Assembly: GCA_000165345.1 (NCBI GenBank)
Contig: CM000431.1
Span: 480,001 to 544,000 of the forward strand
Length of the DNA: 64,000 bases
Reading direction: 5' to 3'
This document shows, piece by piece, positions 39,808-63,630 of the stretch. The number at the start of each line of letters is the position of its first letter. Within the stretch, counting starts at the first letter, position 1. Below the pieces are notes generated by a model that saw only the letters and a program-made list of their open reading frames with translations, made no database searches and had not been told where the DNA came from. A program made the translations under genes and the position numbers.

Positions 39808-42639
39808 ATGACGTCTTGTTCGGAAAAAATTAAGGCCTCTGAATCTGGCACCAAGGTTTCAGCTGCTAGCCATGAATCCCTAGCTAAGGATGAGGTATTT
39901 CAAGCTCAGATAAAATCAATTGACCAGGCAAAGAGTTCTCTATTAGAACTTGACCCAGAGATTGTAGAGAATTCTACAAACCAGACCGAAAATGGGTCAG
40001 GTAGCGTAGTTATTACACCAACAGGAGTCAGCAAAACCAACTCCATTGATGATATCACAACTTGTACAACAAGTAGTGACATTTCAACCCCTATTGAGCT
40101 CAGTCTGACGGCAAAGAGACCGAGAGCCGAGACGTCTTTCTCTGATAAGCTCGATTCCGATACTTTGGAACCAACAATAAAGGTGCAGAGTCTAGATCCT
40201 TCAATTGGAATTGTATCCAAAAGCGAAGCCGAAATCCGGAGCTCATTTATTCAGGATCATGGCCCAGCTTCTACTGTGGTATCATCTCCAACTCCTTGCA
40301 ACAGTATTGTGTTTAAGTGTATTGATACCTCAGAAAGCGGAGTTGATATCAATAATCGCACAGAGTCAAACTCTACAGAGGTAATTCCCACATCAGAAGC
40401 GTCGAAGTCTACTACTGCATCTGCATCGCCCTTGAACCAAAGCCAGAGTTGTAAAGATGAATTGAATTCTGGTATTTGCATGGGAGCCAAACAGCCCGCC
40501 TTTCTATCTTCTAAGCAACTCTTTGATGAGCTAGTTCAACTAGCTGCAGTTTCGCCAACTACAGGAGCTAGTGGCATTGCTTTGCTGAATCCACAGCAGC
40601 TCGCATCCTTAGATAATGGAGTTCTCCAACAATCCTTGCAAAATTTTGGTTTGTTAATGGGCACAGGTCTGGGAATGCCATCATTGGGAGCAACAGGAAA
40701 CACTACCCCAATTAAGGTACAGTCCCCGTCAATTTCTGCAAGCCAGCTTATGGTGGGATCAATGGGGCCATCTTCAGCGGAAGATTTACAACAATCAACA
40801 TCTGCAAGCACTACAGCCTCTGCCTCAACCGCTACATCATCGGCAGCCTCTCCACTAACTTCTCCAATCAATCTTTCATCTGCGTCTGCAACACATGGTT
40901 CCGCTGGTCAAATTCCAGGGATGGTTGCTCAAAATCAGTTCATCTCCCAACTAATGGCAAACCCGCTTTTCCAATCTCAGGCGATAGCCAGCCAAAGCTC
41001 CCAAAATTTGAATAGGATGGTTTCAGCAGCCTTTGGAGCCGGATCTCCACAAACTACTCCCGCCTCTAACACATTCGGCTGGCCATCAGGAGGTTCAACT
41101 ACTCCCCAAGGGTTTTGCCCAACTGGTACCCAACCAGGAATGGCAAATTTTGCTGCTCTTCTTGCTGCAGCAAATTCTCAGTTGCACGGTCACAACGCGT
41201 TTCCTGTGTCATTTCCCACACCAGTAAATAGAAGTATTAGTAACGGGTCGAATCCAATTCTAATGCCCATGCAATCTGCAACTCCCTCTGATGGATCTGC
41301 TTTCGAAGGAGCCCAGACATCCACCACTGCAAGCACTGCGTCTCCCAGCGAGGCCAGTACATACCCTTCTATAGGCCAGCAAAATGATCCCTTACTAAGG
41401 CTGGGCGCAGGACTTCCCCACAACTCATCTGGAACTCCCTGTATTCCGCCATTCTGGAACACAAACCCTGCCTTGCTAGCATCTGCTGCTTCCTTAATAG
41501 GCTCTGGAGATATATCCCAAACCATGGCGTTATTAAATGTTAATCCCTTAGGTTTACAACCTTTTGTCCAGGCGCAAACCCCACAGCAAGCCAATACTCA
41601 CAACTCAAATTCTGAAGAGGAAGGTGCCAACAGAGCCCAACAAAACTGCCTTTCTCTCTTGGCATCTTTGCAGCAACCCAGCTTTGACTTCTCTTCACTT
41701 TCTACTTCAAGCCCAGCAACTCTTGCCGCTCTAGCCAGTGCCGCAACCGCTGCAACTAATGCACAACTTTCTTCCGCTGCCCAGACACAACCAGATGCTG
41801 AAAACCATGCTTCCAAGCCCGTAGCTAAGGCTTCTGGTAGTGGGAGGGCTTCCCATGGATCAGGCTCCAGAGCCTTGAATGCGAGCTCTTCAGTTACAGC
41901 GGCTGCTGCTGCTCTTGACCATCTAGATGTAGACTGGGATAGTGTTGGACTTAGAGAGGCAGAACTAGCTGCAATGGAAATTTGCAAGACTGCAAGCACT
42001 CTTTTCGACACCACTGATGGGACCACCCCAGTCCCTAGCTCCCCAGCTGCTGTAGGAGAAGCAGTGTTAACTGCAGCACAGCTCACTATCTCCGCTAGGG
42101 CAATGCTAAAATTTGTGAAAGGTCTGACGCCCACACAACTTGGCATCAATTGGCACGCATGCACTCAAAGATTTTGCGTAACTTACACAACTAGGGATGA
42201 ACAGAATCCCCGAAGTTGGACTTTAGGTGCATACTCAAACGGAAAACTACATTACAAGTACTTTGGGCCAAGATCCTGGACAGTTATGGGTCTAAAAGAG
42301 GCCTTAAGAAAAGCCTTCAAGGCTAGAACTTCTCTGCTTCTCGGGCAGGGAATTATTGAAGAGCCAGAGGATACAGGGTTAAGCAAGGAGGAGTTAACAT
42401 ACCACGCAAGGCAATTACTACAACAACTCAGGGACTCACTCGGAGTCAAGAAGGGTAATGTTCACAAGGGCCTCTACATTTCTTGGCACCCCAAAACAAG
42501 GAGATTTGTTGTTGCTTTAAAATCATGTGAAAGTGGTAAAACTATCTACAAGTACTTTTCTCCAAAGGAGAGGTCAATAAAGGGGATAAAAACTGCTCTT
42601 CTTGATGCACACCAAATGGTTGTAGCTGCTTGCCAATAA
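39808..42639 (+). CDS. ApiAP2-type transcription factor candidate: 943 aa, long Ser/Thr/Ala/Gln low-complexity regions and two tandem C-terminal AP2-like domains
   Basis: Two roughly 60-aa repeats of the form [GI]xWHxxTxRFxVxx...GKxxYKYF(G/S)P...(L/I)KxAL: GINWHACTQRFCVTYTTRDEQNPRSWTLGAYSNGKLHYKYFGPRSWTVMGLKEALRKAF and GLYISWHPKTRRFVVALKSCESGKTIYKYFSPKERSIKGIKTALLDAH. This resembles the coccidian/cryptosporidial AP2 variant 'GVxWDxxxxxWxAxW..NGKRxxKxFSVxKyG.eeAKxLA'. A 1.5-kb upstream leader and GC-richer low-complexity body are typical of ApiAP2 genes. Confidence 0.55.
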   Translation: MTSCSEKIKASESGTKVSAASHESLAKDEVFQAQIKSIDQAKSSLLELDPEIVENSTNQTENGSGSVVITPTGVSKTNSIDDITTCTTSSDISTPIELSLTAKRPRAETSFSDKLDSDTLEPTIKVQSLDPSIGIVSKSEAEIRSSFIQDHGPASTVVSSPTPCNSIVFKCIDTSESGVDINNRTESNSTEVIPTSEASKSTTASASPLNQSQSCKDELNSGICMGAKQPAFLSSKQLFDELVQLAAVSPTTGASGIALLNPQQLASLDNGVLQQSLQNFGLLMGTGLGMPSLGATGNTTPIKVQSPSISASQLMVGSMGPSSAEDLQQSTSASTTASASTATSSAASPLTSPINLSSASATHGSAGQIPGMVAQNQFISQLMANPLFQSQAIASQSSQNLNRMVSAAFGAGSPQTTPASNTFGWPSGGSTTPQGFCPTGTQPGMANFAALLAAANSQLHGHNAFPVSFPTPVNRSISNGSNPILMPMQSATPSDGSAFEGAQTSTTASTASPSEASTYPSIGQQNDPLLRLGAGLPHNSSGTPCIPPFWNTNPALLASAASLIGSGDISQTMALLNVNPLGLQPFVQAQTPQQANTHNSNSEEEGANRAQQNCLSLLASLQQPSFDFSSLSTSSPATLAALASAATAATNAQLSSAAQTQPDAENHASKPVAKASGSGRASHGSGSRALNASSSVTAAAAALDHLDVDWDSVGLREAELAAMEICKTASTLFDTTDGTTPVPSSPAAVGEAVLTAAQLTISARAMLKFVKGLTPTQLGINWHACTQRFCVTYTTRDEQNPRSWTLGAYSNGKLHYKYFGPRSWTVMGLKEALRKAFKARTSLLLGQGIIEEPEDTGLSKEELTYHARQLLQQLRDSLGVKKGNVHKGLYISWHPKTRRFVVALKSCESGKTIYKYFSPKERSIKGIKTALLDAHQMVVAACQ

Positions 42640-57964: not shown

Positions 57965-59986
57965 ATGTCAACACTATCAAAAAGAAAACTTTATATTACT
58001 TCGGGAGACTACGAGGACTTTATTTTGGAGAAAAAAATTAAGAGGGAAATTGATTATAGCAAAATATTTGTTGAATTAAATGAAGCAGAAAACGAGTTAT
58101 TTAAACTTCTCATTGAATATACGAAATCGAGCAACTTAAAGACAATAGTGAGAGTTGCAGGGGGGTGGGTTAGAGATAAGATCCTAAGATTTATTTACTT
58201 AAATAGTGCAAAAAATAAAGATAGTTGTGCGGATAATGACGAAGAACAAGCTTCTACATTTAAGAAAGATATAGATATAGCACTAGACAATATATCTGGT
58301 AAGGATTTTGCAATCGGGTTCAATAGATGGTTGCAGAGCCACCACAACTACCCTGCACATAATGTGGGGATAATTAACAGAGATCCAGACAAGAGCAAGC
58401 ACTTGGAGACTGCTACACTTGCTTGGAATGAAATTAGTATCGATTTTGTTGGATTGAGATCAGAAACCTATACTTTAGAAAGTAGAATCCCAATAATTAC
58501 TCTCGGTACCGCTGAAGAAGATGCTTTTCGTAGAGATTTTACAATAAATAGCATGTTTTATAATTTGAATGAAAGGAAAATCGAAGACTTGACATGTAAA
58601 GGGATTGAAGACTTATATAACGGAATAATTAGAACTCCGCTGGATCCGATGAAAACCTTCATAGATGATCCTCTCAGGGCATTAAGGGCTTTCAGGTTTA
58701 CTTCTAGGTTACACTTTAGGGTTGATGAGGAGCTATTGAGCGCATGTAAGGATAAATCTATTCACGATGCATTGCAGGCCAAGATAAGCAGAGAAAGAGT
58801 AGGAACAGAAGTTCACGAGATGATTTCTAATAAGTATACTGGGAATCCTGCTATAGGCCTTCGATTAATAATTAATTCCAATTTGGTTGATTCTGTGTTC
58901 AAATTCCCAGATAATGAGGTAATATACAGCTTTATTAATGATTCAGAGTACCATTGTTTTTCAAATTTTGGAGATTGGTATTCCCCAGGACCATACTTGG
59001 TTGAATTAACTCATAGAATTATTGAGATATTAACTTCAAACAATTTAAGTGGCTGTCTTAATAACTCGTTTGATTATAAAAAACTAGATATCATTAGAAA
59101 GTTATTATATATTGATCAAGAATCAAATTGGGGGGTTTCTACATATTTTTCTTTCTTACTTCCTCTTTTCCATCATTACTTTAAGAATGAAAAAAATAAA
59201 GAAATACCATTAGTCAAATACATTATCTCAAATTCATTAAAGCTTTCAAACAAAATTGCCAATTCAGTAATGCAGTTATTCGATTCTTTATTAAAAATAA
59301 TTCACAGAGTTGTGAAATTGGACTCTTTAAATGAGTTAGCAAACTCAACTCTAGCAGAAAACAGTAATAGAGACAAGCTTAAGGTTGATGTTTACTCCAA
59401 AGATTTCTTAAAATCTATCGGAGACTCGTTTTTTCCAGAAATTTGGAATTTCTACTGCAATTATTTCAAATGTTGCTTGGAAAAATGGAGCTTAACTAAT
59501 ATTCATGCATCTAGTGAATATAAGCGGGATCAACAAAGTTGCAAGTTTCTGCAAAGAAGGGTTGAACTTGGAATCTTTGTGTATTTTACCGGTAATCTTT
59601 GGCTTGAAATGTTAATTGCTTTATTTTCACTGGATATAATTTGTAATAAAAGATCATCCACGCACAACATAGGATGCTGGTCAGATTCTGAGCTCTTAGA
59701 GTCACTTAACTTTCATCCATATATGGAGCTTATTAAAGAAATTCTTGAAATTAAAATGGCAACTTTTTACAATTTTAGAAATCCTGTAGATGGAAAAATG
59801 ATTCAAAAACATTTTCCAGAACTCCAAAAAGGACCAAAATATAAGTTTATTATAAATCTCAGTCTTTTGTGGTTTTTGGCTTTTTCACAAGAACCAGAAA
59901 CCCCAAACACTACAGAAGTTGCCAAGTGCATGGAATTTATAACTGAAAATTTCAAAGAAGTCATATTAGACTCTAAGCCTATTTAA
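57965..59986 (+). CDS. CCA1: tRNA nucleotidyltransferase (CCA-adding enzyme), class II, with an extended C-terminal region
   Basis: Head-domain motifs RVAGGWVRDKIL (GGxVRD), DIDIALD (DxD) and RRDFTINSMFYN (RRD/FTIN). 673 aa. Confidence 0.8.
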   Translation: MSTLSKRKLYITSGDYEDFILEKKIKREIDYSKIFVELNEAENELFKLLIEYTKSSNLKTIVRVAGGWVRDKILRFIYLNSAKNKDSCADNDEEQASTFKKDIDIALDNISGKDFAIGFNRWLQSHHNYPAHNVGIINRDPDKSKHLETATLAWNEISIDFVGLRSETYTLESRIPIITLGTAEEDAFRRDFTINSMFYNLNERKIEDLTCKGIEDLYNGIIRTPLDPMKTFIDDPLRALRAFRFTSRLHFRVDEELLSACKDKSIHDALQAKISRERVGTEVHEMISNKYTGNPAIGLRLIINSNLVDSVFKFPDNEVIYSFINDSEYHCFSNFGDWYSPGPYLVELTHRIIEILTSNNLSGCLNNSFDYKKLDIIRKLLYIDQESNWGVSTYFSFLLPLFHHYFKNEKNKEIPLVKYIISNSLKLSNKIANSVMQLFDSLLKIIHRVVKLDSLNELANSTLAENSNRDKLKVDVYSKDFLKSIGDSFFPEIWNFYCNYFKCCLEKWSLTNIHASSEYKRDQQSCKFLQRRVELGIFVYFTGNLWLEMLIALFSLDIICNKRSSTHNIGCWSDSELLESLNFHPYMELIKEILEIKMATFYNFRNPVDGKMIQKHFPELQKGPKYKFIINLSLLWFLAFSQEPETPNTTEVAKCMEFITENFKEVILDSKPI

Positions 59987-60928
59987 TTAACATAAACAAT
60001 TAAATTTTGTTGCGAGTTCAGGAGATATTTCCGACACCTGTTTGAAAATTTCGTTTGCTTCGTCCATCTTTCCTCTATAAGTCAAATCTTTTCCCTTTAA
60101 CCATAGAATATACGCCCTTTGATCTGCCTCACTAGTCAGTATAGGGTTCACTCTCCTATAAAGTATGTCTGTTCTTAAAATATACTTAGTATATCCAGCA
60201 CACAAAGGCTCGCCTTCGTGCATATCTGCAATAAAGAAAGTTACTATTCTACCTGCTCTTGGCTGTACTCTAGTAATAACATTATTTGGGTTTGTTCTCT
60301 CTCGGCCAGATTCGTCAATAAATCGTTTCTGTGTCTTTTGAGATTCATCTACAAATGAAGTAGCACCGCCTCCTTCTTCTGGAATTGTGTTTAAGTATAC
60401 TAAAACTGTCCAAAGAGTGCGAGTATTTGTATCTATACAGACTGAACAATCTGTATGGGGCCCAAAGTGGCCTCCATCACGGTATCTCCCAAAAAACATT
60501 TTTTCATATATTCCAATAGATTTCCATTTCCCAATATTATCTTCCTCGCTATAGCTATCATTTTCATTTATTTCGAATTCATGGTAATTAAAAATGTTCT
60601 TGATTCTTTCCCAAATGAATTTAGATAGTAAATACATATTACCCTCAATTGTATCCACATTTCTATAGCTTTTCTTAGAGGAATGTCCCGGATTCCAAAA
60701 AGAAAATTCTCCACTTTTCTCAAGAGATGCTATCATTTCCTTACATTCATCTTCTGAGAATACATTGTCCCAAATTTCTGCATATGGAAACCCTGGTACC
60801 TTTTGTCTAGTTATATTTTTTGTATCGACGCTCGGATCTTTCTCATGCACGAAGCTAGCTATTACCTTTTCTTCGTCAACCATATCCTTTTCCTTCACAA
60901 TTGACAAATATTTTGAGTAATTTCCCAT
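59987..60928 (-). CDS. 2-oxoglutarate/Fe(II)-dependent dioxygenase, prolyl-4-hydroxylase-like (cytoplasmic P4H/PhyA-type candidate)
   Basis: HxD...H triad context: RYRDGGHFGPHTDCSV ... GGATSFVD ... IADMHEGEPLCAGYTKYILRTDILYR (distal His then basic residue). No signal peptide. The stop codon abuts the stop of the convergent CCA1 gene (59986/59987). Confidence 0.5.
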   Translation of the reverse strand: MGNYSKYLSIVKEKDMVDEEKVIASFVHEKDPSVDTKNITRQKVPGFPYAEIWDNVFSEDECKEMIASLEKSGEFSFWNPGHSSKKSYRNVDTIEGNMYLLSKFIWERIKNIFNYHEFEINENDSYSEEDNIGKWKSIGIYEKMFFGRYRDGGHFGPHTDCSVCIDTNTRTLWTVLVYLNTIPEEGGGATSFVDESQKTQKRFIDESGRERTNPNNVITRVQPRAGRIVTFFIADMHEGEPLCAGYTKYILRTDILYRRVNPILTSEADQRAYILWLKGKDLTYRGKMDEANEIFKQVSEISPELATKFNCLC

Positions 60929-61425
60929 ATTTTTGGTTTATAGCTTTTATTGTTTGTCTTATTAATTTATTTATATCTTAGAAAAGTTGAAGAAAAAACG
61001 CTCATTCATGCTATTTTGATCTTTTTAGTGTGTAATTAAGAAAAACAGTAATTAGACGGCGGCGCAATTTCTAATTTGGGATGGAAAGCCACAAAGGGAC
61101 TTAGTTTTGCTCTTCTAAATTATTTTACTGGAATATCACCAAAGATTTCTTTTCATTTTATCATTAATCGATTCGAAACCTAGCTCGGAATTGGACTACC
61201 TCAATAATTTTCTCACTTAAATCTGCTGGTTAAAGCTTTTTTAAAACCTCGATATAAAATTCAACTCGATTTATTTCAAGATATTGCTGACTTCCAGTGT
61301 TTCTGCACTGAGAAGACATATTTTAGACCAAAATTCACAACATTGAGTCAAACGGTGCTTTAGGGCACGTAAGTGGATCTAACTCTAATTCTAATAGGTA
61401 CTTTTGCCATGCCTGTCAAAATAAT

Positions 61426-62808
61426 GTGACGATTTGTGAGAATCAGAGCGACAATACAGATCTTACGTGCCCACAATGTGGGAATAATGGCTTTGTTGAA
61501 TTAATATCTTTTGGTTCTCAGCAAAGTCAGGGGGTTTCTCTCTTAGGTATTACGGAACCTATAAATCCCCAGGAGGCTTCAACAAATCTACCAAGATCTT
61601 CTTGGATAGATATTTCATCTTTTCCTCAATCTGGCACTGAAATTGGGCCAGAAAATATACTTTCTAGGCTAATTTCAGAAGTTTCTAATTCTCTTAGGAA
61701 CTCAAGTAACAACCCAACGTCATTTGATCCATTGTTACCGAATTATAATACAAGAATTCATCAGGAGCAGCATAATTCTCATCATGCTCATGCTGTGTCG
61801 TTTTCCAGTGAATTGCCGACGGGGAATCCTGGAGCCACTACATTTATGGTAGGGCTTAGTGGTGAATTTAGGGAATTTCCCCTTGGAGACGTTCTTACAG
61901 GAAGCACGCTTTCGAACTTAGTTGAAAGCATGGAGAATGCTCTTGCCGTAGCCCTTAGTACTGAAGATCCTAATAATCGATTTGGAAGCCCTCCAGCTTC
62001 AACACAAGTCGTTGAGCAGCTTCCTAGAGAAACTGTAACAGAAGACAACATTGTAAGAATCAAAATGTGCGGGCCTTGCGTTGTATGCCAGGATGAGTAT
62101 AGTATTGGAGATGAAGTAATGGGCCTTTCGAGAGATGAAGAGGTGTGCCATCATATATTTCATGCAAATTGTCTTCTTCCTTGGCTAAACCAACATAATT
62201 CTTGCCCAGTTTGCAGGTTTGAACTCCCAACTGATGACGAGTTCTACGAGAGTAGGAGAAGGTCTTCGGCGCAAAATATCTCTTCAACATTGGAATCTAC
62301 AAATCAAGCAGGTACCCAAGTAGAGGCTCGGAATGGAATTCAAGATCATTTAGACTCTGCTACTGTTTCAAATAACAATATACAATCTACAAATTCGGAA
62401 TCTCAGGAGCCTCTTATAGAAGCTGAATTGGGTAGCAGTCAGATAAATTCTCAAGAACGAGATCAAGATCATGCTAGAAATGAAGGTAACTCTAACAATG
62501 CTGCTAGTTCTAATTTTAGAACAATAAACTTCTCGAATCCTATAGGAGAAGTAACTACACTCACATCTCAACTACCAGTTATTACAAGCACAATATCTAC
62601 GACCGAAACTTTCCACACAACCTCTAATCAAGATCCGATTTCTACAGACGATATAATAAACGATTTTCACAATTCAACGCACAGAAGAATTCACCAACTT
62701 CACCATTCCGGAATAGATTTGACATCTCGAGATTTGGACCCTGACTCTATTTCAGACTTTACTCCAATTGACACTATTCGCCATTCGAACTCTTGTAGGA
62801 TGATTTAG
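61426..62808 (+). CDS. RING-H2 E3 ubiquitin ligase of the RNF126/RNF115 (BCA2) type; the conserved N-terminal zinc-finger coding sequence extends upstream of the annotated (GTG) start to at least 61327
   Basis: RING-H2: CVVCQDEYSIGDEVMGLSRDEEVCHHIFHANCLLPWLNQHNSCPVCRFEL. N-terminal BCA2-type zinc finger ...RYFCHACQNNVTICENQSDNTDLTCPQCGNNGFVELI (RNF126: YFCHCC...YICPRCESGFIEEL). The first half (YFCHAC) lies in-frame upstream of 61426. 61426-61428 is GTG, not ATG. Confidence 0.7.
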   Translation: MTICENQSDNTDLTCPQCGNNGFVELISFGSQQSQGVSLLGITEPINPQEASTNLPRSSWIDISSFPQSGTEIGPENILSRLISEVSNSLRNSSNNPTSFDPLLPNYNTRIHQEQHNSHHAHAVSFSSELPTGNPGATTFMVGLSGEFREFPLGDVLTGSTLSNLVESMENALAVALSTEDPNNRFGSPPASTQVVEQLPRETVTEDNIVRIKMCGPCVVCQDEYSIGDEVMGLSRDEEVCHHIFHANCLLPWLNQHNSCPVCRFELPTDDEFYESRRRSSAQNISSTLESTNQAGTQVEARNGIQDHLDSATVSNNNIQSTNSESQEPLIEAELGSSQINSQERDQDHARNEGNSNNAASSNFRTINFSNPIGEVTTLTSQLPVITSTISTTETFHTTSNQDPISTDDIINDFHNSTHRRIHQLHHSGIDLTSRDLDPDSISDFTPIDTIRHSNSCRMI

Positions 62809-63150: not shown

Positions 63151-63630
63151 TCAAGATTGCTCATAATTACCTTCTAGTTCATACAAATTTGGGTGATTAG
63201 GTCCAACAGGGTTTTCACGCATGTGAAAGGAAACAGCTCTAGTAGTTCTGCCAGTTCTTCTTGGACCGACTACCCCTCTAGCCATAAGTTCTAGATTTTC
63301 CATGAATAGGTTGTCAATGGACTCGGGAATATATTCCCATCTATATAACCATGCGCCTTCACTTCTTCCAAATCTTCTCTGAACCCTCTTCCATTTTCGG
63401 GGCTTTCCGGGGACTAATACCAAATTTGAAAACTTTAGAAATTTATTTGGTTGAAAACGACGTTTTATTCCCCCTTCCTCATTTTTGGCTTCTATTTCAG
63501 AAAGCGGCTCTGATTTAGGGTCTACATTTTCAAAGCCATTGCTGGATTGAACAGAGTTTTGGGATTCACCTTCTGGTAATACCTTAATATGTTCCACCTT
63601 TTTTGCATCGACTTTATCTTCGAAGTTCAT
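63151..63630 (-). CDS. Hypothetical small basic protein (159 aa), conserved-looking C-terminus (RRFGRSEGAWLYRWEYIPESIDNLF...VVGPRRTGRTTRAVSFH); function unknown
   Basis: ORF with ATG and compact flanks. No family recognised. Confidence 0.4.
   Translation of the reverse strand: MNFEDKVDAKKVEHIKVLPEGESQNSVQSSNGFENVDPKSEPLSEIEAKNEEGGIKRRFQPNKFLKFSNLVLVPGKPRKWKRVQRRFGRSEGAWLYRWEYIPESIDNLFMENLELMARGVVGPRRTGRTTRAVSFHMRENPVGPNHPNLYELEGNYEQS

Follow-up and report, generated by a model that had tools for sequence, protein, structure and literature searches.

The window considered here is a stretch of 64,000 nucleotides from Cryptosporidium parvum chromosome 3 (contig CM000431.1, positions 480,001 to 544,000), and the subject is one of its genes, cgd3_2060, which encodes a CIP8/RNF126-like RING-H2 E3 ubiquitin ligase with an N-terminal zinc ribbon in addition to its RING-H2 finger. 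The reading frame of this gene is open far upstream of its first ATG, and comparison with the corresponding loci of related species points to an AUU codon as the likely place where translation begins. The features of the frame on which the argument turns are the following.

61309 to 61311, plus strand: second in-frame stop, TGA, within a conserved hairpin (cross-species alignment)
61324 to 61326, plus strand: in-frame stop, TAG, two codons 5' of the ATT, closing the frame (translation)
61330 to 61336, plus strand: AAAATTC, invariant start context with A at -3, -2 and -1 (eight-species alignment)
61333 to 61335, plus strand: ATT, proposed near-cognate (AUU) start codon, in frame with the ribbon, invariant in eight species and aligned with the ATG of outgroups
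61333 to 62808, plus strand: proposed full coding sequence, 491 codons and a stop, for a CIP8/RNF126-like RING E3 (open reading frame (ORF) and translation; ratio of nonsynonymous to synonymous substitution rates (dN/dS); EAK89272.1/XP_626775.1)
61393 to 61506, plus strand: N-terminal zinc ribbon, Zn_ribbon_19 (PF14369), with the Cys pairs CHAC and CPQC (Pfam; match to the RNF126 N-terminal zinc finger)
61426 to 61428, plus strand: GTG, the start given in a bacterial-code ORF list, between the two Cys pairs; not proposed as a biological start
61846 to 61848, plus strand: first in-frame ATG, start of the 320-residue curated models QOY42555.1 and WRK31440.1 (ORF, annotations)
62077 to 62217, plus strand: RING-H2 finger, zf-RING_2 (Pfam, E=7.7e-12, residues 251-297)

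The cgd3_2060 reading frame and its annotations

Translated from 61327 to 62808, the frame has an N-terminus identical to that of EAK89272.1/XP_626775.1 and is 97% identical to a C. hominis RING protein. Its N-terminal domain, Zn_ribbon_19, is matched over profile positions 1-35 of 35 by residues 23-60 of this translation, with a Pfam score of 41 bits against a cutoff of 30.8; in the Protein Data Bank the sole match (E=0.015) is 2N9O, the N-terminal zinc finger of RNF126, with the aligned motif RYFCHxC...CPxC..GF[VI]E. These matches bear out the proposal of an earlier note on this DNA that the N-terminus carries a BCA2-type zinc finger requiring both Cys pairs. At the other end of the protein, zf-rbx1 also scores above its Pfam cutoff. 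The best named matches outside the genus are plant CIP8/RING1 proteins rather than animal RNF126, with identities of 25-47% over alignments that span 12-66% of the query and in most cases between a quarter and a third. A survey of ubiquitin enzymes in apicomplexans (PMC2408969) had placed cgd3_2060 among the RING fingers, with the remark "similar to CIP8 in A. thaliana", which agrees with these plant matches and with cmbei_3002060, the locus tag in C. meleagridis. Like RNF126 and RNF115 (BCA2) of animals and the CIP8/RING1/RHC1A-type proteins of plants, the Cryptosporidium protein has an N-terminal four-Cys Zn_ribbon_19 followed by a C-terminal RING-H2 domain, although it is longer (about 490 residues), with long low-complexity linkers and a long tail. 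The similarity shown to RNF126 is at the level of domains, and the E3 function is a prediction.

The in-frame translation from 61327 reads TKIHNIESNGALGHVSGSNSNSNRYFCHACQNNVTICENQSDNTDLTCPQCGNNGFVELI, the peptide following the TAG having also been given as TKIHNIESNGALGHVSGSNSNSNRYFCHACQNNV... ATGs occur on the plus strand at 61008, 61081, 61409 (out of frame) and 61424, with none within 61082-61408. The description in the earlier note therefore holds as to the stop at 61324-61326, the lack of an in-frame ATG and the lack of one in any frame between 61082 and 61408, and likewise as to an ORF beginning at the GTG of 61426 between the Cys pairs, where the Pfam domain straddles the GTG; the GTG start arises only because the ORF list was made with the bacterial set of start codons. 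The exceptional feature is the reading frame, while the ATG-free stretch itself is ordinary. As many as 173 open codons precede the first in-frame ATG here, compared with 1-23 in the 23 other ORFs of at least 200 residues in the window, whereas the ATG-free run of 328 nucleotides is one of six plus-strand gaps of at least 324 nucleotides in the window, where about 5.3 would be expected. Readthrough or frameshifting from the ORF that begins at ATG 61081 was considered and rejected, as five more in-frame stops occur before 61327 and no other ATG is available in any frame.

Public annotations have dealt with this frame in at least five incompatible ways (320, 484/485, 490, 493-partial and 501/515 residues). 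The models below were collected from the members of the 90% identity cluster and from orthologues; a slash marks the junction in two-exon models.

5'-partial model, 493/492 residues, starting TKIHNIE...: Iowa II; C. hominis UdeA01
First in-frame ATG model, 320/321 residues, MVGLSGEF: CpIOWA-ATCC QOY42555.1; WRK31440.1; C. tyzzeri; one C. meleagridis
Two-exon model, 485/484 residues, MESHKGTY/GSNS: KAL5369555.1; WKS76949.1; one C. hominis
Two-exon model, 490 residues, MESHKGTY/ALGH: C. hominis
Two-exon model, 484 residues, MNR/HVSG: C. meleagridis
Two-exon model, 501 residues, MLFRSFSC/AKIHN: chipmunk genotype I
Two-exon model, 515 residues, MLFCSFSC...: C. ubiquitum
Shortened model without the ribbon, 413/446 residues, internal Met: C. 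canis; C. felis

The difficulty is visible in EAK89272.1/XP_626775.1 ("ring domain protein, partial", C. parvum Iowa II), which is the same 493-residue translation and begins directly after the TAG. As it is marked 5'-partial, the missing start had already been flagged by annotators; the mark came without an explanation, and the later annotations supplied four solutions that are incompatible with one another. The CpIOWA-ATCC and CpBGF annotations were curated manually against RNA-seq, Iso-Seq and direct RNA data. Their models begin at the first ATG with no 5' exon, which is indirect evidence that no prominent 5' junction exists.

Conservation of the start region in Cryptosporidium

Orthologous loci were compared from C. 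hominis, chipmunk genotype I, C. ubiquitum, C. canis, C. felis, C. bovis and C. andersoni and from three further Cryptosporidium assemblies (SRR18693150, SRR31860986 and SRR31860995); with C. parvum these make eleven loci, and the C. ryanae protein brings the number of species to twelve. Eight of these, referred to here as the intestinal clade, are C. parvum, C. hominis, chipmunk genotype I, SRR18693150, C. ubiquitum, C. canis, SRR31860986 and C. felis. The identity of the orthologues in the further assemblies to the C. parvum protein is 80% for SRR18693150 and SRR31831731 (contigs L012 and L013), 53% for SRR31860986 (L014) and 52% for SRR31860995 (L007).

The eight intestinal-clade species share a single layout, consisting of an in-frame stop at most 10 codons upstream, one variable codon, AAA ATT, a peptide beginning I[HR][NS]... 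and then R-Y-[FY]-C-H-A-C, with the ATT placed 66-78 nucleotides before the region of the first Cys codon. An in-frame ATG is lacking from this layout in all eight. The TAG closes the frame in six of them; it reads TGG in C. felis and SRR31860986, where a TGA further upstream closes the frame instead. Conservation of the codons AAA and ATT, both identical in all eight species, can be set against the background of the gene, in which only 9% of third codon positions are invariant across these species and only 16% of the codons for conserved degenerate amino acids are identical in all of them. Likewise, AAAATTC is an invariant run of seven nucleotides, and in the codon alignment of 1509 columns that starts at the ATT only four invariant runs reach 7 nucleotides and only two are longer than AAAATTC. 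An A-rich sequence at -1 to -4 is also the usual start context among the ORFs of the window.

Outside this clade, the ATG start codons of C. bovis, C. ryanae and C. andersoni align with the Ile codon ATT (EMQN versus KIHN), and in C. bovis and C. andersoni an in-frame stop lies 2-3 codons upstream of the ATG. In SRR31860995 an ATG is found at the same place by codon-level comparison (MHNYVFN versus IHNIESN), although MAFFT aligned this N-terminus otherwise, and the nearest in-frame stop is 13 codons upstream. The simplest history is that ATG changed to ATT once, on the stem lineage of the clade that includes C. felis, C. canis, C. ubiquitum and C. parvum. None of the twelve species has lost any of the four zinc ligands or the GF[VI]E motif; orthologues lacking the first Cys pair, which the earlier note had suggested would reduce the upstream match to a relic, were thus not found among them.

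In all four segments into which the gene was divided, dN/dS is below 1. Nei-Gojobori estimates for the more diverged species pairs are 0.14-0.35 over the 21 codons from the ATT to the ribbon, 0.08-0.31 within the zinc ribbon itself and 0.22-0.31 between it and the first ATG, compared with about 0.15 for the remainder. Over the 13 codons that follow the ATT, the minimum numbers of changes at the three codon positions are 7/9/15, an excess at third positions, with zero indels; over the 56 nucleotides upstream of the ATT they are flat (14/15/15), with indels. Small as these numbers are, they agree in direction. The codons from the ATT onward are under purifying selection, and from the dN/dS of the upstream segments together with the codon-position pattern it follows that the 320-residue models leave out selected coding sequence.

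Two elements stand out in the region 5' of the ATT.

61050 to 61071, no strand assigned: promoter-like element AATTAGACGGCGGCGCAATTTC in the bidirectional intergenic region between the divergent 2-oxoglutarate (2OG)-oxygenase and RING genes (cross-species conservation)
61291 to 61315, plus strand: inverted repeat or hairpin CTTCCAGTG-N6-CACTGAGAAG in the leader, 18 nucleotides 5' of the ATT (conserved in seven of eight species)

The core of the first, GACGGCGGCGC, occurs in every one of the eight intestinal-clade species, and the entire element is near-identical in the six that were aligned; it looks like a shared promoter element of the GGCGGCGC (E2F-like) type. Another conserved block, TTTTCGTGTG(T/G)A, occurs at about 61023-61036. 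In the six species tested, where 4-5.5 ATGs would be expected between the promoter-like element and the ATT, the leader of each contains 0-2, and the only one that recurs (61081) lies about 10 nucleotides from the promoter-like element. The stems of the hairpin are unchanged in seven of the eight species, even in SRR31860986, whose remaining leader has turned GC-rich. The repeat could be either an RNA hairpin or a DNA palindrome, the stems showing no covariation by which the two might be told apart.

Proposed AUU initiation and the alternatives

Among the explanations for these observations, near-cognate initiation at the AUU of 61333, kept since the ancestral ATG-to-ATT change, is preferred because it fits all eight species, and it is given somewhat better than an even chance of being correct. 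Of the three possibilities raised in the earlier note (an upstream exon, non-AUG initiation and a sequence error), it is the best supported by the comparative data. Under this proposal, the start codon would have changed from ATG to ATT in the ancestor of the intestinal clade (C. felis, C. canis, C. ubiquitum, C. parvum, C. hominis and relatives), with the N-terminal coding sequence kept. Scanning ribosomes would initiate at 61333-61335 by near-cognate recognition, aided by the A-rich AAAAUUC context and by a leader nearly free of AUGs. The product would be a protein of 491 residues, (M)HNIESNG..., with Met supplied by the initiator tRNA, and the corresponding N-terminal peptides would be (M)HNIESNGALGHVSGSNSNSNR or (Ac-)MHNIESNGALGHVSGSNSNSNR. 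Downstream of the AUU, out-of-frame ORFs of only 1-6 codons occur, at 61409, 61424, 61476 and 61487; speculatively, ribosomes that miss the AUU might reach the AUG at 61846 by leaky scanning or reinitiation, giving a ribbon-less isoform of 320 residues. In this scheme we infer the use of AUU by ribosomes, the position of the transcription start and the second isoform.

A more elaborate version holds that an obligate AUU start was fixed across the intestinal Cryptosporidium clade by one ATG-to-ATT change, and that selection on AAAAUUC, the AUG-poor leader and the hairpin together set a low or regulated output; the odds for and against this version are taken to be equal. The same context, leader and hairpin might also set the ratio of ribbon-containing to ribbon-less isoforms.

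Main ORFs with near-cognate starts are found elsewhere, including mammalian TEAD1/TEF-1 (AUU) and EIF4G2/DAP5 (GUG) and yeast GRS1 (UUG) and ALA1 (ACG). As in these, the conserved coding sequence of cgd3_2060 extends 5' of the first AUG, the near-cognate codon is conserved and stands in a good context, and a stop closes the frame upstream. The known cases were proven by experiment, whereas that of cgd3_2060, an apicomplexan gene, is argued by comparison. Unlike them, it has an ancestral AUG that is still visible in outgroups, so that the point on the tree at which ATG gave way to ATT can be located.

Several points weigh against initiation at the AUU. This codon is ordinarily inefficient as a start, and the titles and abstracts surveyed in the literature yielded nothing relevant on non-AUG initiation in Cryptosporidium; nor did a Cryptosporidium ribosome-profiling dataset surface among those listed. 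A downstream hairpin that might boost the start is not significant, the predicted stem at 61345-61379 having z=-0.7 and no real covariation. The eight species are related, so that the conservation counts are non-independent, and the codon-position signal in the first 13 codons is based on few sites. Finally, a two-exon model exists for C. parvum and C. hominis in which the splice boundaries are canonical (GT-AG), the phase is correct and the ribbon stays whole, and it has been adopted by several public annotations.

61081 to 61103, plus strand: candidate exon 1, "MESHKGT-", 23 nucleotides, of the 485- and 490-residue models (public models)
61104 to 61373, plus strand: putative 270-nucleotide intron of the 485-residue model, GTTTTG...CACGTAAG (public model)

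In this alternative, which is considered unlikely, a short 5' exon supplies the AUG and exon 2 begins at 61374; MESHKGT and two bases of a Tyr codon come from exon 1, the 485-residue product begins MESHKGTYGSNSNSNRYFCHAC... (KAL5369555.1, WKS76949.1), and the peptide MESHKGTYGSNSNSNR is predicted. The 490-residue C. hominis variant would use an AG that is missing in C. parvum, where window positions 61354-55 read GG. The ATG at 61081 is present in five of the six aligned species, but it is missing in C. canis, and in chipmunk genotype I, C. ubiquitum and C. felis the ORF that it opens runs into a stop at codon 4; the frame of this ORF also differs in some species. Moreover, the acceptor AG (61372-73) is AA in C. 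canis and absent in C. felis. The donor GTTTTG, the acceptor CACGTAAG, which has no pyrimidine tract, and the length of 270 nucleotides are all unlike the introns of the neighbouring F-actin-capping gene, a control of only four introns of 47-94 nucleotides with GTAAGT donors and T-rich TAG acceptors. The supposed intron would, in addition, hold 13 coding-like codons and the invariant start-like context, and the model is unused in the annotations curated with Iso-Seq and RNA-seq. The short ATG-containing exon raised as a possibility in the earlier note exists as a public model, but it works only in C. parvum and C. hominis and with atypical splice sites.

Splicing was also addressed more generally by enumerating, in the eight species, every combination of an ATG, a GT or GC donor and an AG acceptor that joins in frame to the ribbon. 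No solution is common to all eight species; the many species-specific ones are what chance would be expected to produce. The enumeration gave no plausible solution in C. canis, where the only ATG available lies inside the coding sequence of the neighbouring gene, or in C. felis, where the only solution deletes conserved codons. Another candidate, a phase-0 acceptor TTTTAG immediately before 61327 joined to an MLF..SC exon at 61008 as in the chipmunk and C. ubiquitum models, was rejected: the exon contains TGA and TAG in C. parvum and C. hominis, it lacks an ATG in C. canis and in C. felis, and the acceptor reads T(T/C)TTGG in C. felis and SRR31860986. The GTAAGT at 61369-61374, which with the AG at 61396-61397 delimits, as the earlier note had said, a 29-nucleotide interval that is out of phase and so offers no rescue by simple splicing, is a chance match within Val-Ser codons that reads GTAAAT in C. 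canis and GCTGGA in C. felis. All of the Logan contigs retrieved with the ORF (including L001, L010, L011 and L013) are collinear with the genome and are therefore uninformative on splicing.

Another unconventional start, either at the near-cognate ATT of 61342 or the AGG of 61396 or through a mechanism resembling internal entry that uses the leader hairpin, is less probable still. The hairpin at 61291-61315 is kept in seven of eight species amid a diverging leader, and AGG 61396 is likewise kept in seven of eight. Against this, ATT 61342 is ACT in three of the eight (C. ubiquitum, C. canis and C. felis), the AGG encodes the Arg of RY[FWY]CH, a conserved motif, and is itself a very poor start codon, and the codons from 61336 to 61395, which would precede the AGG, still evolve in a coding-type manner.

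Translation only from the first in-frame AUG at 61846, with the upstream zinc ribbon an untranslated relic, requires no unusual mechanism and is the model used for CpIOWA-ATCC, CpBGF, C. tyzzeri and one C. meleagridis annotation. It is nevertheless judged highly improbable, as it must accommodate 173 open codons upstream where no more than 23 are found elsewhere in the window, is contradicted by upstream selection (dN/dS 0.08-0.35) and leaves without account the retention of the zinc ligands and GF[VI]E in all twelve species and the full-length Pfam match.

A sequencing or assembly error that deleted an ATG, the last of the possibilities in the earlier note, is refuted and has next to no probability, nothing in its favour having been found: the sequence of 60929-61430 is identical to the window in two independent C. 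parvum assemblies and differs in a third by three single-nucleotide polymorphisms, none of which makes an ATG, the identical 460-residue ORF occurs in 49 indexed blocks (24 contigs with the ORF were examined), and the ATG-less state is common to eight species.

Surrounding features and meaning for Cryptosporidium

The genes around cgd3_2060 are, in order, a CCA-adding-type nucleotidyltransferase, a 2OG-Fe(II) oxygenase on the opposite strand, the RING gene, a 159-residue ORF and F-actin capping protein alpha, and this order is kept in all orthologous loci long enough to show synteny. The first two, at 57965-59986 (plus strand, PolyA_pol/CCA-adding type) and 59987-60928 (minus strand), are convergent with zero bases between them, so that their 3' untranslated regions must overlap on opposite strands. 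The 159-residue ORF (63151-63630, minus strand) has no Pfam family, and its position is kept in all Cryptosporidium loci that reach it (158-175 residues). Farther away, positions 40001-42000 form the peak of GC content in the window (0.476 versus about 0.35) and lie within a 943-residue ORF (39808-42639, plus strand) with no Pfam match. Within the RING gene, contig L001 (Logan SRR18691161, C. parvum-like, 99.5% identical) has an in-frame deletion of 60 nucleotides, 61618-61677, removing SFPQSGTEIGPENILSRLIS; it is flanked by the 6-nucleotide direct repeat ATTTCA, its boundaries are not GT-AG, and it is probably a slippage deletion polymorphism.

For annotation, an assignment of the start of cgd3_2060 would settle a practical problem, since the most heavily curated reference models omit a zinc-finger domain that is regarded here as functional. 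If AUU initiation is correct, gene callers restricted to ATG would systematically mis-model such genes, and comparative annotation that demands an ATG will repeat the same error in others. It would also be the first documented non-AUG start of a main ORF in Cryptosporidium and, if the AUU is real, would provide a cleanly dated switch from AUG to a near-cognate codon in a parasite whose translational control is almost unstudied, and with it a simple genetic handle on start-codon stringency in Cryptosporidium.

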